From Promethearchaeota archaeon (GTDB lineage: Archaea > Asgardarchaeota > Heimdallarchaeia > Hodarchaeales > Hodarchaeaceae): a DNA stretch of 64,000 bases. The stretch spans positions 6,726-70,725 of the forward strand of contig JBHLPQ010000001.1 in NCBI GenBank assembly GCA_048939265.1, read 5' to 3'. Each line of letters begins with the position of its first letter. The first letter of the stretch is position 1. A model generated the notes under the pieces. That model was given only the letters and a program-made list of their open reading frames with translations. It was not told where the DNA came from and made no database searches. Position numbers and translations under genes: made by a program. Shown here piece after piece: positions 790 through 44,760 of this stretch.

Positions 790-1410
790 TTAACTTTGAA
801 TTTCCAAGCGAACAGGATTCTTTGATATCATCTCAGCAATCTGTTTCAGCTGATCTAGGGGAAATCTAAGCAATTTTGGATCTCCCCGTAACGTGATCTT
901 TAATTCAATATCACCCTCTGGGGGGGCAAAGATCTGATCAATTTCCAGAATATCCAGTGGAGCAAAGAAATCAGCAAAAGTTTTTCGTGTGTCAGATTTT
1001 CTCTCAATAATTTCAATGGGTTTTCTGATTTCAGTTTCGATAAATTGTCTAACTTCATCATTTTCCAGAATATTATACCCATTCCGTGTTAAAAGCACAA
1101 TAGATCCATTCAATTGCTGTGCACGATCCAAGGTCACATTCTGAAGTTGTTTCGGAAATCGTTGTTCAGCTTTAGCGAAAGCAATTGAAACATCAACGTC
1201 GAGTTGTGTGATTTTCTTTTTTCGAAGTTTTTGTTTGCATTTTTTACATAATACTCCGGTTTTCGCACAAAAGTTACAAATAGGGGTTATAACCACGTAT
1301 TTGGCCTCATCGTTTCTATATTTTTTTTCCCAATCCTTAAGTAATCTTAGATTATTTAAATAATTTCTCCTAATAAAAGCAGATTTTATATTATGAAGCT
1401 CATAGAACAC
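790..1410 (-). CDS. Putative nucleic-acid-binding protein with an N-terminal C4 zinc ribbon (CNFC..x6..CKKC) and a KH-like C-terminal region
   Basis: A Cys-x2-Cys-x8-Cys-x2-Cys motif followed by a basic stretch. Downstream composition is reminiscent of archaeal KH/NusA-like RNA-binding proteins. It overlaps the argF stop by 11 nt, an operon-like arrangement. Confidence 0.35.
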   Translation of the reverse strand: MFYELHNIKSAFIRRNYLNNLRLLKDWEKKYRNDEAKYVVITPICNFCAKTGVLCKKCKQKLRKKKITQLDVDVSIAFAKAEQRFPKQLQNVTLDRAQQLNGSIVLLTRNGYNILENDEVRQFIETEIRKPIEIIERKSDTRKTFADFFAPLDILEIDQIFAPPEGDIELKITLRGDPKLLRFPLDQLKQIAEMISKNPVRLEIQS

Positions 1411-2326: not shown

Positions 2327-2354
2327 GATTTATCACCCTAAACTGATTTGTGAC

Positions 2355-2648
2355 CTATTCAAAAGCTCCTCCATGAATGACTGGAATAAAAGCTATTGTG
2401 TCTTCATTTTTCACCGTTGTGTTCATACCATTTAATACAGAAATTTCTTGTTGATTAATGAAAATTAAAAGAGATCGTTTCGTCTCTAAAGACTCAGAAA
2501 AGAAACTTTTCAGTTCTTTGAATTTTGGATCTTTTATCAGCTCTGATACAATTTCTCGTAGAGATATCTCTGAAGAAATTTGGTAAGATAAGGATTGCTG
2601 TTTTAAGTCATATTGTAAAGATCCTAAGAATAGGAGGCGTGCGATCAT
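2355..2648 (-). CDS. MoaD/ThiS-family ubiquitin-like small protein with a 3-residue tail (AFE) after the Gly-Gly
   Basis: The C-terminal region ...ISVLNGMNTTVKNEDTIAFIPVIHGG-AFE matches the MoaD/ThiS beta-grasp consensus (VNG...L.DGDEVAIIPPVSGG). The N-terminal FLGSL..L resembles MoaD FFARLRELLG. Confidence 0.6.
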   Translation of the reverse strand: MIARLLFLGSLQYDLKQQSLSYQISSEISLREIVSELIKDPKFKELKSFFSESLETKRSLLIFINQQEISVLNGMNTTVKNEDTIAFIPVIHGGAFE

Positions 2649-2676
2649 GGGAACATCAGTTTCATTACTTGGAGGA

Positions 2677-2778
2677 TGCGCCGACCGGGAGTTTCAGTAA
2701 TGCTCTAATTAAGATTACATTTGAACCCGGGTCACCAGCTTGGGAGGCTGGAGTCCTACCAAACTAGACTATCGGCGC
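2677..2778 (-). tRNA. tRNA-Gly(CCC) containing a ~29-nt non-canonical intron in the T-loop (between positions 59/60 and 61). No encoded CCA.
   Basis: Manual fold of the minus strand: acceptor GCGCCGA/UCGGCGC, D-arm GUC..GAC with GG, anticodon stem CCAGC/GCUGG with loop CUCCCAA (U33, anticodon CCC, A37), T-stem CCGGG + loop UUCAAAU, then an inserted GUAAUCUUAAUUAGAGCAUUACUGAAACU before the 3' T-stem strand CCCGG. The intron can form a GUAAU/AUUAC helix. Confidence 0.7.
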
Positions 2779-2790
2779 ATGATAATTGGC

Positions 2791-2821
2791 TATTTAAACA
2801 ATTTTTAGTGTGAATTTAAAT
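2791..2821 (-). promoter_or_regulatory. Candidate archaeal TATA/BRE region upstream of tRNA-Gly (TTTAAATA and ATTTAAAT motifs)
   Basis: AT-rich box-A-like motifs 13-43 nt upstream of the tRNA 5' end on the transcribed strand. The spacing of the nearer one is too short for a TSS outside the tRNA, so the distal one is more likely. Confidence 0.3.
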
Positions 2822-2866
2822 GAAATGTCCTGCAACGTGGAAAAAATAAAATCAAAAACATAATCT

Positions 2867-3610
2867 TTAACGAAACACGTCAGTTTGACGATCCCTAATC
2901 AAAATTGTAGTAGAAATATCATCTTCTTCATATTCCACTCCCCGTACAATAATAACTGGTGTTCCCTCGTCAGATTGCCCCATCACAAGACCTGCTGCCG
3001 CAGCTACTTCATCCGCTTTAGCAACAACAGTTGATTTTAATTCATATCCAAAAAGATCTTTTCGTCCCCTTAAATCGTCAATAGGATTAATTCCTGCAAC
3101 TCCAATGGCAACGTTGACCGTACCTGCTCTGAGAGGGCGACCAAAGGTATCAGAAATAATAACAGCAACATTTATCCCTAATTCTTTGAATATTCGGTCT
3201 CTTATCCGTTTTGCTGATAAATCAGGATCATTAGGAAGACCAATAACAGTTTCACCTGGAGTGTTGGATTTATCTACGCCACTATTAGCACAAATAAAGC
3301 CGTGTTTAGTCGCAGTTATCAGGACATGCTCATTCATACGAATGATCTCACTACTCTCTTGAAGAATGACCTCAATTTTTCTTGGATCCTTATCTTGAAG
3401 CTCCGCAACAGATAACGCGAAGGAACTTGGATTAATTTCAGCAAGGTTGTATACTTTATTCTCCGCTTTGGAAACAATGGTATGAGCAATGACAAGGATA
3501 TCGTCATTTTCCAATGTAATTTTCCGTAATTCTGTAACCAAGATACTCTCGAGATCATCTCCTGGATTAATAAGAGGAAAGTCTCGAAGAGGAAAAATTG
3601 TGACTAACAT
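2867..3610 (-). CDS. cofE: CofE-family protein (coenzyme F420-0:gamma-glutamyl ligase-like)
   Basis: N-terminal PLINPGDDLESIL, ICANSGVDKSN, ISDTFGRPLRAGTVNVAIG and GQSDEGTPVIIVRG blocks match remembered CofE signatures. Length of about 247 aa fits. Confidence 0.7.
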   Translation of the reverse strand: MLVTIFPLRDFPLINPGDDLESILVTELRKITLENDDILVIAHTIVSKAENKVYNLAEINPSSFALSVAELQDKDPRKIEVILQESSEIIRMNEHVLITATKHGFICANSGVDKSNTPGETVIGLPNDPDLSAKRIRDRIFKELGINVAVIISDTFGRPLRAGTVNVAIGVAGINPIDDLRGRKDLFGYELKSTVVAKADEVAAAAGLVMGQSDEGTPVIIVRGVEYEEDDISTTILIRDRQTDVFR

Positions 3611-3753: not shown

Positions 3754-4518
3754 CTAAATTCCAAACTCTGAGGGGCGAGTTTTTACCTGTTCTGTTAGAT
3801 CTTGTAACAATCGTCGTACTTTCTCGGTTTGCGTAGTATTCCCCACTTTGTGGTATTTTTCGTGAGCTTTTGCAAGGAGATCGATTACTTCCTTAACATT
3901 TTCTCGGGCACTTATTAATGCTCTTGCTCGTTGATATAGTGCATGGGCCTCATATCGTGTTGGATCTTCTCGTCCTAATTTGAACTCCTCGACTGCTTTC
4001 TCCAAATAATATGCCTTATCAAAATTTGAATCCATCGCTGCTGCTCTTTGTACAAATGAGCGAGCCCGAGCTCGGGCTGCTTCCATTTCTAGACCCGTTG
4101 TTTGATAAAGAGCAGCTGCAGATTCATATAAACGTGCTGATTCGATAAATTCCCCTTCTTTGGCTTTAACTTTAGCAAATTCTCCTTGAGTTTGAGCTTG
4201 AATGGTTCTAGCTTGTTTTGCTTCTTCAGAAAACCCCTCTGTTGAGAATTTAACATTCGCTTTTCCAAAACATCGGATTGCATCTAGAAGATTCATATCA
4301 AGCATATTTATGTAACCCTTGGCACAAAATTGATACGCTTCAGCTCTCTGACTGAGTTTCTTCTGATCTCCACCTTTGAATAACTTTGAGGCCTTTTTAA
4401 AACTCTCTAAAGCCTCGTCATAGCGCTGAGTTTCATAAAAAACTATTCCTTGATCGAATTCCTCTTGTGCTTTTTTGGTTTTACTTCCTTTGAATAATGG
4501 TATACCCGTCAACTCCAT
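3754..4518 (-). CDS. Hypothetical all-alpha, TPR-like/helical repeat protein
   Basis: 254 aa, Ala/Lys/Glu-rich with repeated amphipathic helices (EALESFKKASKLF, KAYYLEKAVEEFK, YEAHALYQRARAL). No catalytic motif recognised. Confidence 0.4.
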   Translation of the reverse strand: MELTGIPLFKGSKTKKAQEEFDQGIVFYETQRYDEALESFKKASKLFKGGDQKKLSQRAEAYQFCAKGYINMLDMNLLDAIRCFGKANVKFSTEGFSEEAKQARTIQAQTQGEFAKVKAKEGEFIESARLYESAAALYQTTGLEMEAARARARSFVQRAAAMDSNFDKAYYLEKAVEEFKLGREDPTRYEAHALYQRARALISARENVKEVIDLLAKAHEKYHKVGNTTQTEKVRRLLQDLTEQVKTRPSEFGI

Positions 4519-4987: not shown

Positions 4988-7900
4988 ATGAAAATTATAA
5001 CAGAGGATCCTCTTTTTGGTGGAATAAAAGTGAAAAGAATACAAAACAATAAAATCTTCTTCCTCTTCATAGTATTATTATTTACCTATTCAGCTCAGGG
5101 ATTCATTCAGTTTTTTCAAACTGAGTCTATAGATTCCCACTCTTCTTCATTAGGTAATAGACAAGTCCCACCCCTTCAGGAAAATGGTCTTTCATCCTCC
5201 TCTTCTCCACGTACTGGGATCATTCCACCTTCAGGCTCTCGTCACTCTCCTCGGGCTGGTGTAAACGAAATAGTTGATGGAGGGTTTGTTTATTTTCCTG
5301 GTGACACGATTCACATCAGAAATCGGTTTAATATTCCTAACTATGATTTTGCAATATTATCTCAAAGGATTGATATTTATCTATTCAATAGTAGTGATAC
5401 TCCCGAAAATGTCTCAACCCACTTCGTCAAGTCAGATTATACTAATGGTTCGAGACCCGCCGAAGAACCCTCAATTTCGGATGATCCTCAACTTGGCTGG
5501 CTTGATACCACATTTCAAATTCCCACTTGGACAGAATTAAATGCTATGGGTATCGATGCTGATGATAATGTAACAATTTACCAATTCTATCCCTCATACA
5601 ATGTAACTTCTGAAATCTCTGGATGCCCACCTTTTAATCGAACTGATTCTTTTATCATTAGTGGCTATGCCATGTTTTCTGTTGATGCTCCTGGTTTGGT
5701 GAATCCTATTAGTGGGGACAATAGCTTTCGGCAGGGAGAAAATGCCACCGCTTCATTAACCGCAATTTCAGGGGTAGATCCTGTACCAGACGTAGCAGTT
5801 GACTGTTCCCTCTATTTCAGTAATGATATAGAAATTCTAAATGGAACCAATGGGTTCAACTATTATCTTCAAGATTCGTTGGGAAATCCATCAACTACAA
5901 CAGATTCGAATGGTAAGATCTACTTATTCGTGAATACAACCTATCCTACCACGTCTGAGAATGATTATTATTGTAATGTTACAGCCAATTTCGATGGAAC
6001 TGGTTTTTACACTAGTAATTACGTTCCTGGCAATCCAAGCACTAATACAGAGACAGCCTCGGTTGATTTCACGATTGATAATCAGGAAGACATCGTATCT
6101 ATTGATTTTATATCTGCCATTGGCGATACATCTGGTTGGCCAAAAGGGGAGAATGATTCCTGGCCCCTGAATCCCCCACTTGAAAACATCACGATTGTGA
6201 CATTTAGAGTTCAAGCTACTACCTCGTATAATGGGACCTCAACTCCCTATATCCTTGAGGGCATTCCTGTTAACGTAACTTTAGATTTCGGGGGTGGTTG
6301 GCCAGCAGGGGTAACCCTCAGTGCTGTCCCAGGATTTTCGTATAATGGTAGCTGGGCTTTCACTAATAGTGCTGGACTTGTCCAATTTAATATCACTGCG
6401 ATATATCCTACTTATTATGGTCAAAAAACCCCAACTATTATTGCGAGGGCAAATTTGCAGAATAATTCAGCTTTATCCTACCCCTATTCTTCTGTTTTAT
6501 TGCCCCATCGTTTTCTGACTTCTGCGACTGGTGTTAATGCTACCACTTCCAAAGTGATCAGTATTGACCATGATTTTTGGATTGGAGAGATTTCCTCTTC
6601 GCTAAACGACACTAGTATCCGACCAGGAGAAGGAGCGAGACTAGCGACGCAAATCTATGCTTATGGGGATTATTACGATGACCAATACCATCAGTCAATC
6701 TCTCCAATTGGCACCCTTCCTGTGAAAATTGAATTAATCCAACAGATTCCTGGCGTTAGTATTATTAATACGAATCCTGTTGCTCCGAATCCGGGCTACC
6801 ACTATACGGATATAAATGGCTGGATATATGTGGATATTAGCACAACCTTTGGGGTCACTCCTGAATACTATCTCAACCTGGGAATTAAAATAACGGTCGA
6901 TTTTGAAAATGATTCAAATCCCCGCTTGATTGGTCCGTATCATGCTGGTTATGATACTTTTGCAGAATTCGACAAAACATGGAATACAATCCAGAGAAAT
7001 CTTGACATTGATGCTAATTATATACTTTGTAACATCTACACAAGAGATCTTATTGAGAACGGAATATCCTACCCTTCTTCTAGCACAGAAGCAAAAATCC
7101 TCCGTCCAGGTGACGTCTTGGATGTTTATTTTGAGGTCGAAGAGGTCATAGAGGCTATTTCTTTAGGGAGTATTCCTGTAAACGTCTCACTGAGTGTCTC
7201 TGATCCAGAGGTCTCAATAGGATTCATTTATTCTGATGGTGAAGCAAGACCGAACTACCATAAAACAAGAAGTGATGGATATATAGCGATTCGTGTCACC
7301 ACTACCAGTAGTCTAAAACCTCAAGTAATTCAACTCAAAGCAATAGCCGATTTTGCCAATGACTCTTTGCCCTGGCATGTAGGCCCGAAAAATTACACTC
7401 AATTCATTGGGAATAGCTCATATTCTGAGATCATTTTTGACATTACTATTAATCCTCAATATTTTACGGGCAGTATTTATAGGCCTAATCCATCTATAAA
7501 TCCGAATGCCTCGTTAGTCGTTCAAGGCGAAACCTTTGAAATCAGATTTGATTTAAGGCTCACTTTTCACAATACTGGAGAAATTCTTCCCCTGGCCAAT
7601 GCTCTCATTGACGGAATCTCCATTACTCTCCTAGTAAACGGTACAACGAACTACGGCCTTTATAAGATGCGAGTGCTAAATGAGACTCTTTTAGAAGCCT
7701 CCAGTCAAAACACTGTTGATAGCACAGTAATTTTTTATGTCCAAACAAATGTTTCAGGGTCCACTGTAGAAGATACATACAATATCTCTGCTAGCGCTAA
7801 TTTTGGAGCTGCTAAGGGATGGATTTATAATATTACTCATCCGTCGGTACCTACAGGGGAATTGTCAGGAGACTGGGTCAATGGTTCCTCCGCAGCTGAT

Positions 7901-10189
7901 TTTGCTCACATTAAAAACATTAATATTATCGTTCGGAATATTGACAAAATCACTACTAGAATGGGGGAAATTACTGATGGATCTCATACTGATGCGGGAT
8001 TCAATGCTCTTTCAGACCACTATGAGGTCTATAGAGGGACAAGCTCGATAAATGTGACTGGTGATTATTTAGACTCTGAAACTAAGGGAGGTATTTATCC
8101 AGCCACTATTGTCATCTCGTTCAATTACACAGGGGGTACTTATGATCATCCAACTACAACCTCTACTGATGCAAATGGCGAATTTTTTGTGATTGTTACC
8201 ATACCTAACTGGTTCCCATTAGAAAACATTACCATATATTGTTGGGATCAAGGAAACCCAATTCCAAGAGAAGGACGAACAGGTGTATCTAACGTTAGGG
8301 TAGTTTCCACTATTGATTTAACTTATAATCTGAGCGGTTTCACGGGTAACTCTGTTTTTATAGGGGAAAGCGTGACCGTTTCTGGAACAATAACGGATGA
8401 CCAAGGGAATGATATATCTGCATATTTGGTTAACAGTTTACGTGTAAGTGGGTGGAATGGAACTCATGAATTTGCGCCTATAGTAGGAAGTGCTACAGGT
8501 ACAAACTATAATCTAGTTTATCTAACACCATATGACTTTACTGGGGATAGTCTGATTATAAGGTTAAACATCACTGACAATCCACAGCTCCTTCATTATC
8601 GATTGAATTCTGCAGAACAACTCATCAATATCTACCATGATTTCGAAATCATCTCCCTACAAATCTATTTTCCCTCTAATGATACTCTTGTCGACATTAG
8701 CAATAATAGCATATATTTAATTACTGGAATCATGAATCGAGACATTGAATTAAGGGGAACACTTCAAGATTCTACTGGACGTACACTTTGGGGGAAATGG
8801 ATACATGATTTCTGGAATGAATCAAGTATGTTACCTCAGCTCGTAAATATCGATGGAAATTATTCCCTAACTCGTGCATTTCCAGGATGGGAAAATATCA
8901 CATCCTTCAGCTGGAGCATTTATCATGAGTTAGACAATGGTTCCCTGCTGGAAAAGCGTTATTCCATTACTCTGCAATGGGAGGTTTACGATGAGACTCC
9001 TCCCTCAATAGTCATAATTGATCCAGTAACCATTGGGAGCCTAGCAATTCTCTCAGAAAATGCTACTACAATACTCAATGCTACTGTTTTTGACCCTGAT
9101 TCAGGATCAGGGGTTGTTTCAGTTGGTCTTGGTAGTGTAATTCTTTGGATTGATGGAACAAGCTATCCAACAACTCAAAACGGACAGAACTACTTTTATA
9201 ACTGGGATACTGCAAGTCCAGAGGATAAAACCTATAACATCACAGTCGAAGCTTTTGATTTAGGAAATAATCAGTATTCAACCGAGATCACAGTTGTTTT
9301 TGATATTATTGACCCCACAGCAACCATACAATACGATAGTAATAATAGTTATCTTATGGTTGACTCATCAGGGGTTGTAAGTATTTCAGGTTCCTTAGCT
9401 GACTCGGCTTCAGCATCAGGGGAAAATAGTGGTGTGGATAACTCCTCAATTAGCCTCATTATCCGAAATGATGCTTCAATAGTCCACACTCTCTCTAGTG
9501 GAGATCTTAATATTGATCAAGATACCTATTCGTATAATTGGCAAATATATGATCCTATTACTCTGATTCGGGATCCCCGTTACACCTCAGAAGTTGCCTG
9601 GACATTAATCTTAACTGTTAATGATAGTATTGGAAATTCGTTACAGATTGTAGAATCGGTGAACCTTGACAATGTTGACCCTGATTTGATAATTTCTCAA
9701 GAGCCCGATTTAACAGTCGATGAAGATGTTGAAATTGCAGTAATTTTCACGGACGCAGTAGATCCCACTGATTTAGGAAGTGGCGTTAACACTGATACCT
9801 TAGAATTCGAGCTGGTATCTGAGGATACACAGGATGTTCTTTCCTCTTACACTGCCTCTGACACTCAAGTAACCTTGAGCTCCACAAGTGCATCCTTGAA
9901 ACTAGATATTTCATCCGAGCCAGATGGTGATTACTTCATTAGGACAAGGATAGCGGATAATACCGCGAATATACAAGAAGTATCTTCCAGAGTCTTTACC
10001 ATTTTTCATGCACCAGAGACATCTGCACCCCCTCAAACCTCAGAACCCTCAGGTCCGAATGGTACTCAACCCCAAGTGGTTTTCAGAGTTAATCTATTTC
10101 AGTTAATTCTATTTCCCACTTTGGCGATGGGGGGCGGTGTAGGTGTAGCAGCTTTGTATGAGAGAGTCAAAAAAATGCGAAATTTATGA
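4988..10189 (+). CDS. Giant secreted/cell-surface protein (1733 aa) with an N-terminal signal/anchor, dozens of N-glycosylation sequons, a Pro/Ser/Thr-rich stalk and a C-terminal TM helix with a basic tail. Candidate S-layer or adhesin.
   Basis: Hydrophobic N-terminus (FFLFIVLLFTYSAQG), very many NxS/T motifs, beta-rich Thr/Ser/Asn/Tyr composition. The C-terminus is ...SAPPQTSEPSGPNGTQPQ..LILFPTLAMGGGVGVAALYERVKKMRNL. Confidence 0.7.
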   Translation: MKIITEDPLFGGIKVKRIQNNKIFFLFIVLLFTYSAQGFIQFFQTESIDSHSSSLGNRQVPPLQENGLSSSSSPRTGIIPPSGSRHSPRAGVNEIVDGGFVYFPGDTIHIRNRFNIPNYDFAILSQRIDIYLFNSSDTPENVSTHFVKSDYTNGSRPAEEPSISDDPQLGWLDTTFQIPTWTELNAMGIDADDNVTIYQFYPSYNVTSEISGCPPFNRTDSFIISGYAMFSVDAPGLVNPISGDNSFRQGENATASLTAISGVDPVPDVAVDCSLYFSNDIEILNGTNGFNYYLQDSLGNPSTTTDSNGKIYLFVNTTYPTTSENDYYCNVTANFDGTGFYTSNYVPGNPSTNTETASVDFTIDNQEDIVSIDFISAIGDTSGWPKGENDSWPLNPPLENITIVTFRVQATTSYNGTSTPYILEGIPVNVTLDFGGGWPAGVTLSAVPGFSYNGSWAFTNSAGLVQFNITAIYPTYYGQKTPTIIARANLQNNSALSYPYSSVLLPHRFLTSATGVNATTSKVISIDHDFWIGEISSSLNDTSIRPGEGARLATQIYAYGDYYDDQYHQSISPIGTLPVKIELIQQIPGVSIINTNPVAPNPGYHYTDINGWIYVDISTTFGVTPEYYLNLGIKITVDFENDSNPRLIGPYHAGYDTFAEFDKTWNTIQRNLDIDANYILCNIYTRDLIENGISYPSSSTEAKILRPGDVLDVYFEVEEVIEAISLGSIPVNVSLSVSDPEVSIGFIYSDGEARPNYHKTRSDGYIAIRVTTTSSLKPQVIQLKAIADFANDSLPWHVGPKNYTQFIGNSSYSEIIFDITINPQYFTGSIYRPNPSINPNASLVVQGETFEIRFDLRLTFHNTGEILPLANALIDGISITLLVNGTTNYGLYKMRVLNETLLEASSQNTVDSTVIFYVQTNVSGSTVEDTYNISASANFGAAKGWIYNITHPSVPTGELSGDWVNGSSAADFAHIKNINIIVRNIDKITTRMGEITDGSHTDAGFNALSDHYEVYRGTSSINVTGDYLDSETKGGIYPATIVISFNYTGGTYDHPTTTSTDANGEFFVIVTIPNWFPLENITIYCWDQGNPIPREGRTGVSNVRVVSTIDLTYNLSGFTGNSVFIGESVTVSGTITDDQGNDISAYLVNSLRVSGWNGTHEFAPIVGSATGTNYNLVYLTPYDFTGDSLIIRLNITDNPQLLHYRLNSAEQLINIYHDFEIISLQIYFPSNDTLVDISNNSIYLITGIMNRDIELRGTLQDSTGRTLWGKWIHDFWNESSMLPQLVNIDGNYSLTRAFPGWENITSFSWSIYHELDNGSLLEKRYSITLQWEVYDETPPSIVIIDPVTIGSLAILSENATTILNATVFDPDSGSGVVSVGLGSVILWIDGTSYPTTQNGQNYFYNWDTASPEDKTYNITVEAFDLGNNQYSTEITVVFDIIDPTATIQYDSNNSYLMVDSSGVVSISGSLADSASASGENSGVDNSSISLIIRNDASIVHTLSSGDLNIDQDTYSYNWQIYDPITLIRDPRYTSEVAWTLILTVNDSIGNSLQIVESVNLDNVDPDLIISQEPDLTVDEDVEIAVIFTDAVDPTDLGSGVNTDTLEFELVSEDTQDVLSSYTASDTQVTLSSTSASLKLDISSEPDGDYFIRTRIADNTANIQEVSSRVFTIFHAPETSAPPQTSEPSGPNGTQPQVVFRVNLFQLILFPTLAMGGGVGVAALYERVKKMRNL

Positions 10190-10339
10190 AAATCAGGTCA
10201 CCAAAAATATACGTCAATACTGACATATTTATATGAATAAGTAATATAAATCAGAAAAGAAATTAAAAGTAATATTGGTATTAAATCGTCTACTCATCTA
10301 GATTAGTTAATAGAAGGACAAGAAAGACCAAAAAACATT

Positions 10340-10867
10340 ATGAGAATTGTGATAGGAATGAAAGAACTAAATTATTTTGCCCAAGTATTAAATCTATTTG
10401 ATCTACTTCTACCTATTATTGTTGTTGGTGGTTTAATTATTGGAATTGTGTTGTTCTATTTTCGACGACAAATTATGGAGACCATCGGAGGAGGAGGAGT
10501 AAAGAAAACTATTCTGGAACAAGAAATTGAACAACGCCTTGTTCAAATTCGACAATTGGCACGACAACAAATGTTTAGAGAAGCATCGATCCTCATGTGG
10601 CAAACGATGACTCTTGCATCTGAAGGTTTTCTTGGTATTGGTCGTACACCGAATGAATCCGCACGTCAACTCGGTGTTAGACTGATGAATCGTGGGGATT
10701 TAGATCCGAGCGCTATTAATGCTATTGTGATGGTTTTTGAAAAAGCCCGATACAGTCAAGCTCCTCTTACAACTCAGGAATTCAAAGATGGATTGTCGGG
10801 ACTTCATCAATTCCTTCAAACAGCCACATCTGTTGGTGAGATAGCTGAAGTAGCTGAAGAGTATTGA
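10340..10867 (+). CDS. DUF4129-like membrane-anchored protein (MoxR-module accessory)
   Basis: N-terminal TM helix followed by a GRTPNESARQL....VFEKARYSQAPLTTQEF pattern typical of DUF4129 (TPxE ... ARY..p.t..e). Confidence 0.5.
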   Translation: MRIVIGMKELNYFAQVLNLFDLLLPIIVVGGLIIGIVLFYFRRQIMETIGGGGVKKTILEQEIEQRLVQIRQLARQQMFREASILMWQTMTLASEGFLGIGRTPNESARQLGVRLMNRGDLDPSAINAIVMVFEKARYSQAPLTTQEFKDGLSGLHQFLQTATSVGEIAEVAEEY

Positions 10868-10919
10868 TCATTTACATATAACTGATGAGATTAATATAGT
10901 AAAGACTAAGTGAGACTTT

Positions 10920-12668
10920 ATGGTAGATCGAACAACCTCTGCACTGATCATCCTAGCCATTTTCATTAGTTATCCTTTTGCAGCAGCATTCTTACTGGGT
11001 ATAGTAGCTGTAGATAGAAACACAACTAATTTTTCCATTTATAATGAAGGTTGGAATGGAGCTAGTGCATTCAAGAAAATGTTCGAAGAATATGGCGACG
11101 AAGGGGAAGGGGGTCAAATCTCTACTATTGTTGGCAGTAATAATGTTCTAAATCGTTTAAATGCTTCTGAATCCAACAGTTCTCTCATCATATTAGGCCC
11201 AGCAGTCCATTATGATTTTTCCGAAGCATTAGCTATTGTTTTTTACGCTATTAAGGGAGGACGAGTTTTAATCGCAGATGACTTTGGCACAGCTAATGAT
11301 ATCCTTGGAGTTCTTTCTATCTTTCTAGGAATGATGGCACAGATAGATTTAGGTGGTTTGGGGTACAGTGATGCGACAGGAGGGACAAATATCTTTGGAT
11401 TTGAAACAACTACAGACAATACTACAACTACAACCACCACTGAGTCATGTGATCTCGGTGCAAATTTCCCAATTGCTGGAGTTGCCATTAATGGGAGCCT
11501 ACTAGTTGACCAAGGTAGCTACAAACCTCCTACCCCTCTCACGCCGATATTTCATTCTCCTGTTTCAGTTACTCAAGGTACCAGCTATCGAATGCCAGCC
11601 CCTTGGGTCACTGAATTTACAGAGGGGCTCAGTGGTAATGGTGTTGTGGGAAATTTTGCTTCAATCATAACAATGAAGGTTCGTTATCCAGTTAACGCGA
11701 CAGAGGACCCCATTACAGGAGAATGCCAAGTCTCTTATGAAACTAAATGGGTGCCAATGGGAGAGTTTCCAGCTTCTCTATCCAACGCGTTTTCTGATGT
11801 AAAAAGCCAAGTCTCTAATTTAAATATCCCTGATTTTTCCTTCAGTTTTCAAATCGCTGTCCTCTATAGCAGTAGTGAGGCATGGTTAGAATCTGATATT
11901 GAATTAGCAAAGCAAGATGTTAATAAAATAGGCCCAAATGTGACTGAATGGGGAAACCCAACCATTGGATTTCCAGTTTTTGTTTATTTTCCTTTTCCTC
12001 TAGGAGGAGACTTAACCATCTGTTCAGATCCCTCCATTTTCATCAATGAGTATATTGATGATGAAAGAGAAGAGTATGATTCAACTTACGATAATAGAGC
12101 TTTTGCTCAAAATGTAGTCGATAAAATGATGACAAGTCGGCCAGGTCAAACAATCATATTTGATGAAGGACACCTTGCAAATCACCCTTTATCACCAACC
12201 CTCCCACTTAGTTTATATCTGAAATTTCTCGATATGATTTCAATGTTTCCCCTCTTTGCGTGGGCTTTACCAATTGGAGCAATTATATTATCAAGACGAT
12301 TTATGCCGAAAAGAACACAAGCTAAACCTCTTCTGTTAACCCGTGTTGAACGATATTATGGGCGTAGCTTTTTCGCAGTTAAAATGCGTTGGTTCCTTGA
12401 ATATCAACAATATTCGCGCGGTTTAGAACTGATATATCGCCGTTTAAGGCGTAATTTAATTCGCCGCTACAATCCAGAGGTTGACCTTACCCCTGAAGTG
12501 GCCGCTACTTACTTAGCAAACGAATTTCCCGATCGTTTCACTCATAGAGGCATTACTGATGGGTTAATTGCAATCGAACGGATTATTGATAGTCGAGCTG
12601 CGATTTCTGAACAAGAATTTTTAGATCACTATCTATTCCTAAAAAACATTGGAGTAGAGATAACTTAA
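10920..12668 (+). CDS. DUF4350-like (GldG/GATase1-like) extracytoplasmic domain protein with a Thr-rich linker, a TM helix and a C-terminal DUF4129-like segment
   Basis: N-terminal signal/TM, a SLIILGPAVHYDFSEALAIVFYAIKGGRVLIADDFG block resembling DUF4350, a TTTTTTTT run, the TM MFPLFAWALPIGAIILS, and a C-terminal LTPEVAATYL...ISEQEF motif. Confidence 0.5.
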   Translation: MVDRTTSALIILAIFISYPFAAAFLLGIVAVDRNTTNFSIYNEGWNGASAFKKMFEEYGDEGEGGQISTIVGSNNVLNRLNASESNSSLIILGPAVHYDFSEALAIVFYAIKGGRVLIADDFGTANDILGVLSIFLGMMAQIDLGGLGYSDATGGTNIFGFETTTDNTTTTTTTESCDLGANFPIAGVAINGSLLVDQGSYKPPTPLTPIFHSPVSVTQGTSYRMPAPWVTEFTEGLSGNGVVGNFASIITMKVRYPVNATEDPITGECQVSYETKWVPMGEFPASLSNAFSDVKSQVSNLNIPDFSFSFQIAVLYSSSEAWLESDIELAKQDVNKIGPNVTEWGNPTIGFPVFVYFPFPLGGDLTICSDPSIFINEYIDDEREEYDSTYDNRAFAQNVVDKMMTSRPGQTIIFDEGHLANHPLSPTLPLSLYLKFLDMISMFPLFAWALPIGAIILSRRFMPKRTQAKPLLLTRVERYYGRSFFAVKMRWFLEYQQYSRGLELIYRRLRRNLIRRYNPEVDLTPEVAATYLANEFPDRFTHRGITDGLIAIERIIDSRAAISEQEFLDHYLFLKNIGVEIT

Positions 12669-12710
12669 TCTTAATTAAACCGTACTGATGATCTTTAAGA
12701 TAAATTAGAA

Positions 12711-13778
12711 GTGAAAGAAATGAGCAAAACCGATTTGAAAGGGAAAGATTTCACTAGTGATGAATTAACTTATGAAATGCTGGATGTTCACGATATAGCT
12801 CGTGCATATCAACAAATAATGGGAGAAATCCGAAAAGTATACATCGGAAGGACTGAAATCTTCGAAATGCTTTGGATTGCTATGTTAACGGGTAAGCATG
12901 TCTACCTCGAAGGCGTTCCAGGTATAGGGAAGACTTACATGGCAGAAACCTTTTCTAAAGTCCTTGGAACTGAATATAAACGAATTCAATTCACGCCAGA
13001 TATGCTTCCTTCAGATATCGTTGGAACAAATATTTTTAATCCTAAAACAGGAACCTTCCGACTAAAGAAGGGCCCCATTTTTGGTAATGTTATTCTCGCA
13101 GATGAAATTAACCGAGCTCCTCCGAAAACACAATCTGCAATGCTTGAAGCTATGGCTGAACGACAAGTTTCAATCGAAGGGGAAACGCACAAGCTCGAAC
13201 AACCATTTGTTGTTATGGCGACAGCAAACCCTGTTGAACAAGAAGGAACATATCCCCTCCCTGAAGCTCAATTAGACCGTTTTATGATTAAAGTTATCGT
13301 TCACCATTCTTCTCCTGACGATGAATTACGAATTATTAAATTTAAAAACGAACCCGTCCCCGCGACACTCAACCAAGTTGTTTCTCCTCAAACAATTGTA
13401 GCTATGATGGATGTGGTAAAAAGAGTCTATGTTTGTCCTGAAATCCTAGAAATGATACGTGATATCACTGTTTCAACTCGAACTGACCCACGGTTAGTCT
13501 TGGGATGTTCTCCTCGTGGGAGTGAAAGTCTTTTGTTGTCAGGAAAAGCTAGAGCTGCTATACATGGTCGTGAATATGTCATTCCAGATGATATTCTTTT
13601 AATGATACCTCATATAGTACATCATCGCCTTATACTCAAACCTGAAGCTGAATTAGAAGGAATCACGCAGATTCGTATTGCTGAAGATGTTCGAGATGGA
13701 TTGGTGCTACCAGTAGACCCAATAGAAGAAGAAGCAGTCTATGAAGAGTATTATGAAGAAGAAGTATACGAAGAATAG
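12711..13778 (+). CDS. moxR: MoxR-family AAA+ ATPase
   Basis: Walker A GVPGIGKT, Walker B ILADEINRAPPKTQSAMLEAM, and AAA_3/MoxR architecture with a C-terminal lid. Acidic C-terminal tail. Confidence 0.9.
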   Translation: MKEMSKTDLKGKDFTSDELTYEMLDVHDIARAYQQIMGEIRKVYIGRTEIFEMLWIAMLTGKHVYLEGVPGIGKTYMAETFSKVLGTEYKRIQFTPDMLPSDIVGTNIFNPKTGTFRLKKGPIFGNVILADEINRAPPKTQSAMLEAMAERQVSIEGETHKLEQPFVVMATANPVEQEGTYPLPEAQLDRFMIKVIVHHSSPDDELRIIKFKNEPVPATLNQVVSPQTIVAMMDVVKRVYVCPEILEMIRDITVSTRTDPRLVLGCSPRGSESLLLSGKARAAIHGREYVIPDDILLMIPHIVHHRLILKPEAELEGITQIRIAEDVRDGLVLPVDPIEEEAVYEEYYEEEVYEE

Positions 13779-13806
13779 GAAGAGTTTTTACTAGGTGTAA
13801 ATGTGA

Positions 13807-15279
13807 ATGCTTTCATCCCGAGGAGCCTTCATTGCAATTGGAGGTATATTATTAATTTCTGTAGGATTAAGTGCCAAAGGAATCGGTACTGTAGCTACAA
13901 TGTTCCCCATTCTCTCAGGTGAAGAAGGATGGGAAGCTACTGAAGAACCAGCTCCAACAAACGGAAACACAACTTCAATGGCAGACTTATTCAGACCGTT
14001 TGAAATTCTGAATAGTTCTCCGATAGTAGATTATGGCATGTTCCTTGGTACTTTATTGTTGTTAGCAAGTATCATTGGTCTACCCTTTTTCCGTGTGTCA
14101 GCTAACGCATCACTTATACGAGTTACACGTACCGTGGATCGAGAGAAAGCTTTTGCCGGGGAGTATGTCCATGTGACGGTTAAAATTGAAAACACTGGAC
14201 GCCGCCGAATGGACTTTTTGGAGATCTATGATGCCATTCCTGATATGTTTGAAATCGCCTTAGGTGAAAACTTCATTATTACTCAGCTTGAAGGTAGAGA
14301 GACTAAGGAATTCTCCTATATCGTTCAAGTAAGTACACGTGGAGTTTATCGCATTGGACCAGTGAAGGTCATCATTCATGATAGATTAGGATTTTATTTT
14401 GAAGAAGACATAAGGCACTTCTATACAGAAATTCTTTGTTATCCTTCGTACGAAGATATTAGGCGGATGGAAGCATTGAGTAAACGAAGACAACAAGGAA
14501 AGATGTTTGGGGCTCATAAAACAAAACAGAAAGGAATGGGAGACGATTTTCACGCATTAGCACGATACTACCCTGGTGCCCCCTTCAAATCTTTAGATTG
14601 GAAAGCTTTCAGCCGTACAGGGGAACTCATGGTTAGAGAGTTTGAATCAGAGAAGAATATTCGGATGGTTGTCTTTCTAGACCATAGTGGCAGTATGGGA
14701 GCTGGACTTCCTTTTAATACGAAACTAGACTTCGCTATCCGCTCTGTTATGCTAGTCATGAAGATGGCAGAAGAACGTCAAGATTTATTCGGAATGGTAA
14801 CATTTGCTGACCGACCCACATCTTTTCTTCCACCAGGAGGAGGAAAAGCAATGTTCTTTCAATTACTGGAAATTCTAGCTCTCGTAGAACCTCAAGGTCG
14901 ATCGGATCCTTTAGCTGCAGTAGATTTTGTGATGCAGAGGGTACCTCGTGCCTCATTTTATGTTTTTCTGACTGATCTTGAATCCTCTGATTCAGAAATT
15001 TTCACTGAAGCTGCAAAGCGCGCCCGTGCAACTAAGAACAACATAACTGTAATTTCCCCTTTCGGGCCGCTTTTTGAAACCAAGCTCAGTGATCTAACAG
15101 CCACAGAACGAGCTATAGCAGAAGCAATTTTCGAGGAGTATCTTGGATACAGAAAACAAGTAGAAGATAGATTGAGAGGATTGGGTGTCGAAATCATAAA
15201 TGTTGGCCCTGATGATATGCTTCCCAATGTAATTAAGACATATATGGAAGGAAAACAAGCAGGAAAAGGAACTGTGTAA
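13807..15279 (+). CDS. DUF58 protein with a von Willebrand factor A (MIDAS) domain
   Basis: Two N-terminal TM helices, the DUF58 core, and a MIDAS motif VFLDHSGSM (DxSxS). Canonical partner of MoxR. Confidence 0.8.
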   Translation: MLSSRGAFIAIGGILLISVGLSAKGIGTVATMFPILSGEEGWEATEEPAPTNGNTTSMADLFRPFEILNSSPIVDYGMFLGTLLLLASIIGLPFFRVSANASLIRVTRTVDREKAFAGEYVHVTVKIENTGRRRMDFLEIYDAIPDMFEIALGENFIITQLEGRETKEFSYIVQVSTRGVYRIGPVKVIIHDRLGFYFEEDIRHFYTEILCYPSYEDIRRMEALSKRRQQGKMFGAHKTKQKGMGDDFHALARYYPGAPFKSLDWKAFSRTGELMVREFESEKNIRMVVFLDHSGSMGAGLPFNTKLDFAIRSVMLVMKMAEERQDLFGMVTFADRPTSFLPPGGGKAMFFQLLEILALVEPQGRSDPLAAVDFVMQRVPRASFYVFLTDLESSDSEIFTEAAKRARATKNNITVISPFGPLFETKLSDLTATERAIAEAIFEEYLGYRKQVEDRLRGLGVEIINVGPDDMLPNVIKTYMEGKQAGKGTV

Positions 15280-15282
15280 AAT

Positions 15283-16680
15283 ATGCCCGCAGGACAAGCA
15301 ACAGCTCATTTCTTTCGGATTTTATATATCACAATATTTGTGATTTCTGCGGTCTTGGTTCTTGTCAGTATTGATCCTTCTATGTTTGATTTCGCACAGG
15401 TCTTCAATATCTTAGAATATATTATGTTGATAGTGCAAGTGCTAATCCAGGCTTTCGCTGGTGTAGCATTAAGCTTAGTATCTATGATTGCCTCAATTAT
15501 AAAGGATATTCCTTTCATCGGGGATATCCTTCCCTTCGGGAATGTTCAATCTAATGGATATAGTAGTATGGTCAATGCTCTTACAGCCATTACCAATCCT
15601 GAAAATGGTTTTTTCCCACATTCCAGCGCAACAACGATCACTTCATTTATTGAAGATTTTGGGAACTTTGTGGGAGCTACTACAATCCTGATTCTTCTTC
15701 CCGTTGCGTTTCTCTCAGGAATTGGATTTCTTCGTGAGGGAGACACGAAACTAGCGATATATTCATTTTTAGGGTTTCAACTTATCGTAATAATTGCCAT
15801 TTTTACAGAAAAGATCAATATATCCACAACTATCAATGCAGATGTATCAACTTCAACATTTTTCTTGACGTACATAATTGAAAACTTAATAGCAATGATC
15901 TTGAGTCCAATTTTCACCCTTGGATTTATATTATATCTTCTATTAGAAATCGCTTTTCAAACCTCCTATACTTTGAATATTATTGAACCCATGACTGAAC
16001 GAGAAAAAAGAATCCAAGGACACCTAAAGAGAATTCGCACTTTTGTCCCCTTATCGGAAGAAGAAAAGGGAAAAGAGCAATCTATTCAGAGCGTACAATC
16101 AAAAAAGTTTGATCTGCTTGCAGCGAGTTATCTACGAGAGATGGTCGAAAGACGTGTCTTTAAGAAAGGAGAAGTAATGCGGGATGCAAAATCAACCATG
16201 CGTTTACAGTCATATCTCGCAAGTTTAAATCAAAGTGATCCTGAAACTGATTTAAAATTAGCAGCAAAAACTGCTCAACCTGATATTTCAGCACTACTTC
16301 GACATTTTGTCCCAGCAATGGTTTTCCGTATCATTGCAGTCACAATTCTGGCTTATATTATTATTTCGCCAGAAATTCTTCTTAATCCTTTAGTAGGAAG
16401 TTCGTTTCCAGCACTTTTGCACAGTCTGGAACTCGGCCAACCTGAATTTCAAACAATTGCCATTCTCAATATAGTATTACTTTTTATTCTCATCAGTGTA
16501 ATTCTTCATTTCTTTTCTGGTGGAAGAACTAGTAAAATCGTCGAAAGAGTTGTTCAACAGATTGATACACTTGTAGACTTTGATAGGGCTCCAACACCAG
16601 TTGCAGCACCAGCTGCCGATGAACCATCTGAAGAAGAGGAAGAGGAACCTCCTTCCGATGAGGAAGAAGAAATTTCCTAA
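15283..16680 (+). CDS. Polytopic membrane protein with a C-terminal acidic (EEEEEEPPSDEEEE) tail, last gene of the MoxR module
   Basis: Multiple hydrophobic segments and a low-complexity acidic C-terminus. It starts 4 nt after the DUF58 stop. Confidence 0.45.
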   Translation: MPAGQATAHFFRILYITIFVISAVLVLVSIDPSMFDFAQVFNILEYIMLIVQVLIQAFAGVALSLVSMIASIIKDIPFIGDILPFGNVQSNGYSSMVNALTAITNPENGFFPHSSATTITSFIEDFGNFVGATTILILLPVAFLSGIGFLREGDTKLAIYSFLGFQLIVIIAIFTEKINISTTINADVSTSTFFLTYIIENLIAMILSPIFTLGFILYLLLEIAFQTSYTLNIIEPMTEREKRIQGHLKRIRTFVPLSEEEKGKEQSIQSVQSKKFDLLAASYLREMVERRVFKKGEVMRDAKSTMRLQSYLASLNQSDPETDLKLAAKTAQPDISALLRHFVPAMVFRIIAVTILAYIIISPEILLNPLVGSSFPALLHSLELGQPEFQTIAILNIVLLFILISVILHFFSGGRTSKIVERVVQQIDTLVDFDRAPTPVAAPAADEPSEEEEEEPPSDEEEEIS

Positions 16681-30509: not shown

Positions 30510-31388
30510 GTGCTAATTGAATGTAAGGATCTTATCAAAATCTACCCCTCACCAGTAGAGGGACTGATGTTCCCTGCTTTACGGGGATTAGATCTATCTA
30601 TAGAAAAAGGAGAACTAATCTCAATAATTGGTCCTTCAGGAGCAGGAAAATCAACTCTTCTTCGTCTCATCAGTGGATTTGATCTCCCTAGTTCGGGTGA
30701 AATTTGGTTTGATGGTCGCTTACTTAATCAGTTTTCTGAAGAGGAGCTGTATGATCATCGAAAAAAGGTTGGGATCATGTACCAATCTCCAAGAGATAAT
30801 TTAGTATGGGGATTATCAGCCATTGACAATGTTTTGTTCCCTATGCGATATTCAGGCAAGTTTGGTGAAAACCAAAAACAAAAAGCACAGGAATTACTAG
30901 AAAAAGTAGGATTATCAGGAAAAAGTAAACGAAAACCAACCCAACTATCTGGAGGAGAACAACAAAGAGTAGCTATCGCAACTGCATTAGCAAATGACCC
31001 TCTTGTCTTGTTAGCAGACGAACCGACTGGAGAACTGGATAGCACCACTACAAGTAGTATAATTGATTACTTTAAGGAATTAAAGAACAATATGGGATTA
31101 ACGATATGTGTGGTGACTCACGATAGACGTTTCTCTAAATTAACCGATAAGACTTACAAGATTCAGGATGGTCGATTGACCACTCTTCAGGTGGGCTACA
31201 TTAGAGAACAGATTTTTGAACAAACTGAAGAGACAGCTATCATCGATTCGCAAGGGAATGTAAGACTCCCTGTAGAAGTTCTAGAACTTCTTAAAGGAAT
31301 ATCTTCTGTGAGAATTGTGATTAAAGAAAATAAAATCGAATTAATCCCAATAGTAACAGAACTGGAACGTGATAAGGAGGGGAATTAA
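30510..31388 (+). CDS. ABC transporter ATP-binding protein with a C-terminal AbrB/SpoVT-like (swapped-hairpin) extension
   Basis: Walker [11 protein letters not shown]-loop, signature LSGGEQQRVAIA, Walker B LLADEPTGELD, H-loop VTHD. The C-terminal ~50 aa (IDSQGNVRLPVEVLELLKGISSVRIVIKENKIELIPI) resembles AbrB/MazE DNA-binding/regulatory domains. Confidence 0.85.
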   Translation: MLIECKDLIKIYPSPVEGLMFPALRGLDLSIEKGELISIIGPSGAGKSTLLRLISGFDLPSSGEIWFDGRLLNQFSEEELYDHRKKVGIMYQSPRDNLVWGLSAIDNVLFPMRYSGKFGENQKQKAQELLEKVGLSGKSKRKPTQLSGGEQQRVAIATALANDPLVLLADEPTGELDSTTTSSIIDYFKELKNNMGLTICVVTHDRRFSKLTDKTYKIQDGRLTTLQVGYIREQIFEQTEETAIIDSQGNVRLPVEVLELLKGISSVRIVIKENKIELIPIVTELERDKEGN

Positions 31389-31391
31389 AGA

Positions 31392-32075
31392 TTGGGGAAA
31401 TCTGAAGTCTTATACCATTTAGAAAGCTTACAAAGATTTTATACCAGTAAAGCTGAAATAGTTAAAGCTATTGATGGTATTGATCTTGATATACATGTGG
31501 GCGATTTTATTGCCATTCTTGGCCCTTCTGGCTCCGGAAAAACCACTTTTTTGAATATTCTTGCAGGTTTGGATAAACCAACGGGAGGAAACCTAATTTT
31601 TGATAATACAGATATTTCCACTCTTAATGATTCTGAACTTTGTGATATTAGACGGTTTGACATCGGGATTGTTTTTCAATTTTTTAATTTACACCCCTCT
31701 TTTACAGCACAGGAGAATATAGAGTACCCAATGATGATAGCGGATGTTCCATACAAAGAACGAGAAATAAAAGCAGCAGATCTTCTTAAACAAATGAACT
31801 TGTATGATAAAAAGGATAATTACCCAATCGAAATGTCGGGTGGTGAAAAACAAAGGGTGGGAATTGCTCGAGCGTTGGCAAACGATCCTAGAGTACTCAT
31901 TGCTGATGAACCGACTGGTGATTTAGATTCAGAAAATGCAAAGCAGATTATTGAGTTACTACTGGACATCAATAACCGAGGGACAACTATCGTCATGGTG
32001 ACGCATGATGAATCCCTCTTATCAGAAAAAATGTCCATTCTGTCTCTTGTAGATGGAAAAATAATTAATCCTTAA
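31392..32075 (+). CDS. ABC transporter ATP-binding protein (second NBD of the + operon)
   Basis: GPSGSGKTT, MSGGEKQRVGIARALANDPRVLIADEPTGDLD, MVTHDES. Confidence 0.9.
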   Translation: MGKSEVLYHLESLQRFYTSKAEIVKAIDGIDLDIHVGDFIAILGPSGSGKTTFLNILAGLDKPTGGNLIFDNTDISTLNDSELCDIRRFDIGIVFQFFNLHPSFTAQENIEYPMMIADVPYKEREIKAADLLKQMNLYDKKDNYPIEMSGGEKQRVGIARALANDPRVLIADEPTGDLDSENAKQIIELLLDINNRGTTIVMVTHDESLLSEKMSILSLVDGKIINP

Positions 32076-39629: not shown

Positions 39630-39730
39630 GGCCGACGTAGGATAGATACGAGCAGCTGACTGCTTGTAGTACAATGGTAGTCTCGGAGGTTGTGGCCCTT
39701 CATGTCCGGGTTCGATTCCCGGTGTCGGCC
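39630..39730 (+). tRNA. tRNA-His(GUG) with an encoded G-1 and a ~27-nt insertion (non-canonical intron) in the D-arm region. No encoded CCA.
   Basis: Manual fold: G-1 then acceptor GCCGACG/UGUCGGC, discriminator C73 (the G-1:C73 pair is diagnostic of His), anticodon stem GGAGG/CCUUC with loop UUGUGGC (anticodon GUG), T-arm CCGGG-UUCGAUU-CCCGG. The 5' half between the acceptor and anticodon stems is about 27 nt too long and contains a GCAGC/GCUGC hairpin, consistent with a BHB intron. Confidence 0.6.
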
Positions 39731-41902: not shown

Positions 41903-42298
41903 CTATTTCAAGGGGACAAATTGTGATCCTCTTGTGGCTCCAATACCAGGAGCGGAGTGCTTAACCTGTTTACAGGTGGGCGCAAACTCCCCTAAATAAT
42001 GTCCAAGCATTTCTGGGAGAAGATTGACACGAAGAAACTCCTTACCGTTGTAAACCTGAACAACAGCACCAATAAGTTCGGGAAGAATGATGAAATCGCG
42101 GCAGTGCGTTCGAATAGGCCGTTTTGATTCTTTGCTAGCCAGAATGCGTTCCATTAGTTTAATGTGCTGAGAACTCATTCCACGGGTCAGAGATCGACGC
42201 TGGCGAGCAGGAAGGAGGGAAATAAATTCATCCATGGATTTTTGACGGAGTTCATCGAGTGTAAATCCACGATAACGAAAACCACGACGTGATGACAA
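41903..42298 (-). CDS. rps19: 30S ribosomal protein S19 (uS19 / S15e-type archaeal form)
   Basis: FRYRGFTLDELRQKSMDEFISLLPARQRRSL....THCRDFIILPELIGAVVQVYNGKEF...PEMLGHYLGEFAPT.K.VKHSAPGIGATR matches archaeal/eukaryotic uS19. Confidence 0.85.
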   Translation of the reverse strand: MSSRRGFRYRGFTLDELRQKSMDEFISLLPARQRRSLTRGMSSQHIKLMERILASKESKRPIRTHCRDFIILPELIGAVVQVYNGKEFLRVNLLPEMLGHYLGEFAPTCKQVKHSAPGIGATRGSQFVPLK

Positions 42299-43136: not shown

Positions 43137-43139
43137 GGG
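43127..43139 (+). promoter_or_regulatory. Shine-Dalgarno-like GGAGGAGTGAGGG immediately upstream of the rps3 start
   Basis: A purine-rich GGAGG stretch ending about 2-7 nt before the ATG of the internal operon gene. Confidence 0.3.
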
Positions 43140-43140
43140 A

Positions 43141-44756: not shown

Positions 44757-44760
44757 TAAA

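Follow-up and report, generated by a model that had tools for sequence, protein, structure and literature searches.

A Urm1/SAMP-family ubiquitin-fold protein of Hodarchaeales encoded with a short, variable tail after its Gly-Gly

Results

The stretch of DNA analysed here, referred to as the window, comprises 64,000 nucleotides of a Promethearchaeota archaeon of the Hodarchaeales (assembly GCA_048939265.1, contig JBHLPQ010000001.1, positions 6,726 to 70,725) and has a GC content of 37.8%. On its minus strand it carries a gene for a small ubiquitin-like protein (Ubl), directly upstream of argF, which encodes ornithine carbamoyltransferase. The open reading frame (ORF) begins with MIARLLFLGSLQYDLKQQ and ends with DTIAFIPVIHGGAFE, its translation is MIARLLFLGSLQYDLKQQSLSYQISSEISLREIVSELIKDPKFKELKSFFSESLETKRSLLIFINQQEISVLNGMNTTVKNEDTIAFIPVIHGGAFE, and the C-terminus reads FIPVIHGG-AFE. 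Read along the minus strand, in window coordinates, His92, Gly93 and Gly94 are encoded at 2375-2373, 2372-2370 and 2369-2367, and the tail Ala-Phe-Glu (2366-2358) and the stop codon TAG (2357-2355) follow. argF starts at 2326 on the same strand, leaving exactly 28 nucleotides between the two genes. A first-pass annotation, made from the sequence alone, had given the coordinates 2355-2648, the ending in Gly-Gly plus AFE and the 28-nucleotide gap, all of them correctly, though it named no strand. The ORF is a genuine gene, as attested by its Pfam matches, a predicted beta-grasp fold and 27 orthologues with 49-100% identity, all of which carry PF09138. The orthologues come from metagenome-assembled genomes labelled Heimdallarchaeota, Hodarchaeota, Hodarchaeales or Promethearchaeota.

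Ubl is a protein of the ThiS/MoaD superfamily and is placed between Urm1 and the archaeal SAMPs. Pfam Urm1 (PF09138) matches residues 16-94 with 35 bits (gathering score 21.8), and Pfam ThiS (PF02597) gives 27.1 bits (gathering score 22.5). Every NCBIfam model touched by the protein scores below its cutoff: the Sulfolobales-type equivalog Urm1_like (NF053661; 26.8 bits against 70), moaD (TIGR01682; 22.2 against 66), moaD_arch (TIGR01687; 25.1 against 49.5) and the SAMP1 equivalog (NF041918; 21.3 against 60). A search of the PDB with the single sequence ranked rice, Trypanosoma and mouse Urm1 best, followed by Ta0895, a CysO-like protein and Sulfolobus Urm1, and with a profile of the orthologues rice Urm1 came first and Haloferax SAMP3 second (E = 3e-5). 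The AlphaFold2 model, made from 28 sequences, is a beta-grasp with a predicted local distance difference test score of 84 and a predicted template-modelling score of 0.77; confidence is lowest, at 58, in the C-terminal block. Foldseek searches with this model gave SAMP3, MoaD, SAMP1, Urm1 and CysO at template-modelling (TM) scores of 0.6-0.77, with probability 1.0 to Urm1 (1wgk, 2k9x, 2ax5, 6yuc), MoaD and the SAMPs, and the best structural match was SAMP3 of Haloferax volcanii (HVO_2177, PDB 2M19; TM 0.77). The MoaD/ThiS-like ubiquitin fold suggested in the first-pass annotation is upheld by these Pfam, PDB and Foldseek matches, and can be specified as nearest to Urm1 and the archaeal SAMPs.

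The HGG end of Ubl aligns residue for residue with mouse, trypanosome and rice Urm1, and the Urm1 of Saccharolobus likewise has H81-G-G at its C-terminus (PMC12625751). Judged from these alignments, the HGG ending is a Urm1 signature. Canonical Urm1 ends at the Gly-Gly of HGG; in Ubl the HGG is invariant, yet AFE comes after it. As encoded, Ubl departs from canonical Urm1 in one defining respect, namely that it is not made mature. Residues encoded past an otherwise conserved terminal Gly-Gly are a trait that Ubl shares with precursors of the CsSAMP-pre, CsUb-pre and QbsE type.

The block F87-I-P-V-I-H-G-G94 is invariant among 28 aligned orthologues, and the FIPVIHGG motif was also found in 28 species-representative genomes by a scan that was run with the clade-level orthologue alignment and is independent of the orthologue set. 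The 28 orthologues display 22 distinct tails, 0-10 residues long: AFE, SFE, AFG, VFG, AIG, AF, TI, TD, LF, II, IF, MF, VI, FI, TY, FQ, SSLR, AFGNI, YIFNQA, SSLEKNE, YQSFLELFGN and none. The small steps involved can be seen in one relative (L002, CP070695.1), where a single extra T turns GCT TTT GAA TAG of the window into GCT TTT TGA and AFE into AF. Nineteen Heimdall/Hodarchaeales species genomes have the gene; in 12 it is tailed (2-12 residues) and in seven it ends at Gly-Gly. The genome CP070665.1 has the tail MF, and GCA_016839815.1 is an example of a tail-less one. The tail-less orthologues are mostly the more distant ones (49-55% identity), although one stands at 68%, and one of the tail-less proteins (P0030, locus L010) lies in the same gene order as the tailed proteins.

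A hidden Markov model (HMM) search of the full library returned 444 relatives at E<=0.001, and 124 of the best 150 representatives end exactly at Gly-Gly, as the first-pass annotation had expected of such proteins. The named relatives with tails are mostly from Asgard archaea, among them Helarchaeota (SEIIY) and Jordarchaeia/Freyarchaeota. One cluster from the latter (P0076; L016 10001-10309), with more than 90% identity between its members, contains the tails DMISYYLNL, DMISYYPNL, DMLSY and DMI; tail length therefore shifts on very short evolutionary timescales. An invariant Gly-Gly followed by a tail that varies by substitution, by insertion or deletion and by shift of the stop codon is probably the signature of a discarded propeptide. 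A comparison of orthologues had been proposed with the first-pass annotation, and in it the Gly-Gly is aligned and invariant throughout while most of the proteins carry residues after it. The proteolytic maturation proposed there fits the invariant core and hypervariable tail, and has a precedent in Caldiarchaeum (PMC6043591).

The features around Ubl are listed in Table 1. The order TPR-like gene, cofE, tRNA-Gly, Ubl, argF and NusA-like KH gene was found at every Heimdall/Hodarchaeales locus examined and survives even in a locus with an inverted flanking block, and argF lies directly downstream of Ubl, with a gap of 20-50 nucleotides, in 19 of the 19 species genomes. The NusA-like orthologues that come after argF have 167-168 residues in four loci (L002, L004, L007, L010), so the true start of the gene in the window is probably internal. 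No ThiF or ThiG gene and no MoaE or other molybdenum cofactor gene was detected by Pfam among 46 ORFs of the window, which agrees with the non-classical MoaD/ThiS context noted in the first-pass annotation.

Table 1. Coordinates of Ubl, its parts and its neighbours in the window
Feature	Coordinates	Strand	Basis or remark
Urm1/SAMP-family ubiquitin-fold gene (Ubl)	2355..2648	minus	97-residue precursor, stop codon included
Predicted mature core, residues 1-94	2367..2648	minus	ends in invariant FIPVIHGG
Ala-Phe-Glu tail, three codons, predicted propeptide	2358..2366	minus	tail variability among orthologues
argF, ornithine carbamoyltransferase, 308 residues	1400..2326	minus	TIGR00658 419.9 bits (cutoff 280.85); Pfam OTCace_N and OTCace
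Shine-Dalgarno-like motif GGTGAT	2332..2337	minus	5 nucleotides upstream of argF ATG
NusA-like KH-domain gene, downstream neighbour	790..1410	minus	NF005013 93 bits, below cutoff
tRNA-Gly(CCC) with 29-nucleotide T-loop insertion (2690-2718)	2677..2778	minus	partial Rfam match; ARAGORN after removal of the insertion
Possible promoter of a tRNA-Ubl-argF transcript, TATA-like TTTAAATA	2791..2798	minus	read from the sequence; putative
cofE, coenzyme F420-0:L-glutamate ligase, upstream neighbour	2867..3610	minus	TIGR01916 288 bits (cutoff 180.65); synteny

Outside the clade the Ubl gene has other neighbours: YbaK-like and CN-hydrolase genes in Baldrarchaeota, NadA and GGR in Jordarchaeia, ribosomal protein S17e in Helarchaeota and, in Bathyarchaeia, S17e and a small ORF in one genome and cofE in two others. 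Since adjacency to argF is confined to Heimdall/Hodarchaeales, it represents a lineage-specific gene order and gives no evidence of a shared pathway. The different pathway that the first-pass annotation had thought possible from the gene context gets no support from this adjacency. The S17e gene stands immediately upstream of the Urm1-like gene in three loci (L015 1058-2082, L018 9675-10306 and L039 992-1985), which include a Helarchaeota contig and a Bathyarchaeia genome, and two of the three add an uncharacterised ORF of 124-134 residues. An S17e neighbourhood has been described for Sulfolobales Urm1 (Makarova and Koonin, 2010; PMC2948915). As a separate observation, wherever cofE was detected in a Heimdall/Hodarchaeales locus it is upstream of Ubl (window 2355-3610) and directly downstream of a FIPVIHGG-type Ubl in two Bathyarchaeia genomes (L037 3001-3959 and L038 3001-4068); this pairing in two phyla, in opposite order, could be due to chance or to an unexplained link.

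The tRNA-Gly(CCC) gene has its 3' end 28 nucleotides upstream of the Ubl start codon. Because of the 29-nucleotide insertion in its T-loop it escaped both Rfam at gathering score and ARAGORN, which reports zero tRNAs in the whole window; once the insertion is deleted, ARAGORN finds a 73-nucleotide tRNA-Gly(ccc). The gene is kept at the same position in six syntenic loci, and its 5' half was found in 11 of the 19 species genomes. In one orthologous tRNA-Gly gene (L007, about 4020-4200) the T-loop is intact and an insertion of about 30 nucleotides sits beside the anticodon loop, so that the intron position differs between orthologous tRNA genes. The only Rfam match at gathering score in the 64 kb is a partial tRNA at 39667-39722 on the plus strand (model positions 8-63, 29.1 bits); this may be a further tRNA gene whose intron or ends are unusual.

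The 28-nucleotide spacer between tRNA and Ubl has no AT-rich box placed for a separate promoter and no room for a TATA box, and the putative box TTTAAATA lies about 13-20 nucleotides upstream of the 5' end of the tRNA; on these grounds a tRNA-Ubl-argF co-transcript is plausible. The GGTGAT before argF is among the clearest Shine-Dalgarno-like motifs in the window and a GTGAT-type motif is kept in four of seven aligned loci. Together with the lack of any terminator-like site between Ubl and argF, this suggests that the two genes are co-transcribed.

Elsewhere in the window, on the plus strand, three further regions were recorded. At 4988-16680 a gene for a 1733-residue secreted or surface protein is followed by genes for DUF4129, DUF4350, a MoxR AAA+ ATPase, a DUF58/vWA protein and a 465-residue unknown protein; related genomes keep the first part of the block beside their Ubl locus. 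At 30567-32075, between two large FtsX-type permease genes, a 273-residue ABC ATPase is followed by a separate 114-residue ORF that matches only the C-terminal part of ABC_tran and may be a gene fragment or the result of a frameshift. At 41116-41883, adjoining a ribosomal-protein cluster (41903-47155), a protein of 255 residues combines an RNase III domain with a double-stranded-RNA-binding motif. Such an RNase III architecture is of bacterial/eukaryotic type and, to our knowledge, not common among archaea.

Discussion

The whole of the data is best explained if Ubl is a short-tailed precursor of Urm1/SAMP type which is trimmed after Gly-Gly and then activated by an E1 enzyme, and we estimate the probability of this reading at roughly 0.6. 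The family, the fold, the invariant Gly-Gly and the variable tail are direct observations, and from them we infer a protease and a downstream pathway. Adenylation by E1 requires the free carboxylate of the terminal glycine. E1 acts only on such a glycine and the tail must therefore come off first. Ubl would be the Hodarchaeales version of an archaeal Urm1/SAMP-type sulfur carrier and modifier, translated as a core of residues 1-94 plus AFE. A hydrolase would cut after Gly-Gly and free Gly94. The likeliest candidate is a desampylase-type JAMM/MPN+ metalloprotease, which would also reverse conjugates. An E1 of ThiF/MoeB/UbaA type, encoded elsewhere, would then adenylate Gly94, and the activated end would be thiocarboxylated, as a sulfur donor for e.g. 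2-thiolation of tRNA wobble uridine, or joined to the lysines of target proteins. With a Gly-Gly-specific hydrolase that also deconjugates present, the position of the stop codon would be unselected and extra residues would cost nothing, so that the tail, in itself presumably without information, would drift in length and sequence. The Ubl gene would probably share a transcript with tRNA-Gly, upstream of it, and argF, downstream. Maturation of this kind is known from Caldiarchaeum: SAMP precursors are substrates of CsJAMM there and CsUb-pre is one of CsRpn11, with the cut exactly behind the Gly-Gly (PMC6043591). The same report speaks of a universal archaeal SAMP/JAMM system and mentions Rpn11-like JAMMs in Asgard archaea, and Iyer and colleagues predicted that JAB peptidases free ThiS/MoaD domains at the terminal glycine (PMC1779556).

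A number of points weigh against this reading. Motif regular expressions on the ORFs of the window and Pfam on 46 of them found no JAMM, E1, rhodanese or Ncs6/NcsA gene there, and no JAMM, E1, rhodanese or PP-loop (Ncs6/NcsA) gene, MoaE or ThiG was found in 47 loci (the window and the loci of 46 relatives, 425 kb) using motif expressions on six-frame translations and tblastn with AfJAMM, E. coli MoeB and E. coli ThiF. Of the three tblastn query sequences, that of AfJAMM alone was checked against the PDB. Since linkage between JAB and Ubl genes is rare in archaea (PMC2948915), the lack of a JAMM near Ubl is not in itself evidence against the model. One JAMM labelled 'Candidatus Hodarchaeaceae' (P0273), obtained in a search seeded with AfJAMM, was not counted as it almost certainly belongs to Hadarchaeota: the protein, on contig JASEJC010000019.1 of GCA_030016755.1 (L047), is 56% identical to AfJAMM, its relatives at 74-82% identity are from Hadarchaeaceae/Hadesarchaea, and the contig has about 53% GC compared with 38% for the window. 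In the label of that assembly, the public record has probably confused the Hod and Had taxa. Further, canonical Urm1 of eukaryotes and Sulfolobales needs no processing (PMC12625751). The tail also shows a certain regularity: of 27 tailed orthologues, 21 have Phe or Ile at position +2. Common descent or AT-richness of the sequence could account for this, as could a weak constraint instead of pure drift, such as a slight preference of the protease. Finally, the present evidence does not favour a sulfur-carrier over a protein-modifier role.

Several known systems can be compared with Ubl. QbsE of the thioquinolobactin pathway in Pseudomonas, a carrier similar to ThiS/MoaD, has a tail of two residues (GG-CF) which a JAMM protease trims off before activation. 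QbsE/QbsD and the CysO/Mec+ pair of Mycobacterium are bacterial, and the operons that encode them are devoted to one biosynthesis and include a JAMM and an E1, whereas no such operon exists at the Ubl locus. With the Urm1 of eukaryotes and Sulfolobales (e.g. SiRe_1713, PDB 4WWM) Ubl shares the Pfam family, the beta-grasp, the HGG end and a length of about 95 residues, and the S17e neighbourhood of the Sulfolobales genes is common to its relatives. Canonical Urm1 is, however, translated mature and ends at Gly-Gly (PMC12625751), while Ubl and most of its clade add 2-12 residues. The Haloferax SAMP1, SAMP2 and SAMP3 serve as both sulfur carriers and modifiers, and the genes for their E1 (UbaA) and desampylase (HvJAMM1) lie at other places in the genome; the SAMPs end at Gly-Gly with VSGG or VAGG, where Ubl has IHGG. 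The Caldiarchaeum subterraneum proteins Csub_C0702 and Csub_C1603 (cut by CsJAMM) and CsUb-pre (cut by CsRpn11) are archaeal, of ThiS/MoaD or ubiquitin type, and have residues past the Gly-Gly which are removed exactly after it (PMC6043591). Caldiarchaeum belongs to Aigarchaeota and not to Hodarchaeales, the likeness is one of description and not of directly compared sequences, and its proteases are known, that of CsUb from the same operon, while none was found at the Ubl loci here. In a thaumarchaeal Ubl-Cgi121 fusion (P0118) of the same HMM-defined family, IPVSHGG is followed by further sequence (PMC2948915), in that case a whole domain of a KEOPS subunit as against the short variable tail of Ubl. 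Overall, Ubl is probably best likened to the archaeal SAMP/Urm1 systems, specifically to the JAMM-matured SAMP precursors of Caldiarchaeum, and does not represent a new kind of system.

The tail might be removed by an enzyme that is not a JAMM, either a carboxypeptidase that stops at the folded Gly-Gly end or another endopeptidase, which we regard as unlikely. Most tails have only 2-3 residues, JAMM is linked to Ubl in 0 of 47 loci (adjacency of archaeal JAB and Ubl genes being rare anyway, PMC2948915), and related loci have a conserved M50 peptidase gene some 2 kb downstream. Some tails, however, are 7-12 residues long, and M50 is a membrane-embedded site-2 protease with no such role known. 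The maturation of prokaryotic Ubl precursors has, wherever tested, been due to a JAMM, QbsD and Mec+ being bacterial examples. The same is the case for CsJAMM and CsRpn11 (PMC6043591).

A small subunit of molybdopterin synthase of MoaD type, or some other cofactor sulfur carrier, in place of a Urm1-like protein for tRNA thiolation or modification, is a somewhat less probable identity for Ubl. Databases annotate it as a MoaD/ThiS family protein, several MoaD chains score as well as Urm1 in Foldseek, and Haloferax SAMP1 reportedly performs both jobs (PMC4443979). But Pfam Urm1 scores above ThiS, and neither NCBIfam moaD model comes near its cutoff; the protein ends in HGG, like Urm1, and not in the (P)PV[AS]GG of SAMP3; and the window holds no MoaE or other molybdenum cofactor gene, while relatives adjoin S17e as Sulfolobales Urm1 does.

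A tie to arginine synthesis, with Ubl as a modifier or regulator of ornithine carbamoyltransferase or as a carrier protein of the pathway, would account for the 28-nucleotide gap but is very improbable. It is the constancy of the Ubl-argF pair, down to 49% Ubl identity and across the local inversion, that recommends it, along with the signs of joint transcription and the remark by Makarova and Koonin that Ubl neighbours are sometimes Ubl targets (PMC2948915). Against this, the genes beside the relatives in Baldr-, Jord-, Hel- and Bathyarchaeia are unrelated ones, the window contains no further arg genes, and the unconserved tail means that there is no LysW-like C-terminal Glu acceptor. The main text of the Saccharolobus Urm1 paper makes no mention of ornithine carbamoyltransferase as a target. 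An amino-group carrier like LysW or ArgW, suggested by argF and the terminal Glu of AFE, was considered separately and rejected, as the tail varies (AF, TI, IF, SSLR, none) and the fold is a beta-grasp and not a zinc ribbon. That the tail is never removed and Ubl is a non-covalent beta-grasp partner or adaptor without C-terminal activation is the least credible of these alternatives: searches of the 47 loci, the window among them, located no enzyme for activation or processing, but Ubls that lose conjugation normally lose the Gly-Gly, whereas in this clade HGG and the five residues before it never change, everything past them varies, and seven of 19 species end exactly at Gly-Gly.

The reading of Ubl as a trimmed Urm1/SAMP-type precursor has a small practical effect. 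Annotation pipelines name such proteins 'MoaD/ThiS family', and expression of an activatable protein needs the tail trimmed. No description of Asgard Urm1-like proteins or of a tailed Urm1 was found in the open literature searched. Urm1 is usually presented as a bridge between prokaryotic sulfur carriers and ubiquitin, and it is among the few Ubls that are made mature; Hodarchaeales have been described as the closest archaeal relatives of eukaryotes. One may speculate, although we consider it doubtful, that Asgard Urm1 has repeatedly turned into a processed precursor (in Hodarchaeales, Jordarchaeia and Helarchaeota), with maturation by a Gly-Gly hydrolase as a regulated activation step rather than drift that is tolerated, an evolutionary intermediate between unprocessed sulfur carriers such as Urm1 and SAMP and ubiquitin-type precursor modifiers, and with a tRNA-Gly/Ubl/argF co-transcript that would tie the level of Ubl to translation and amino-acid supply. 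Disposable tails are common on Urm1-like proteins of several Asgard lineages, which implies that a Gly-Gly-specific C-terminal hydrolase acts there, and the tailed Ubl would be a simple, testable substrate for finding it.

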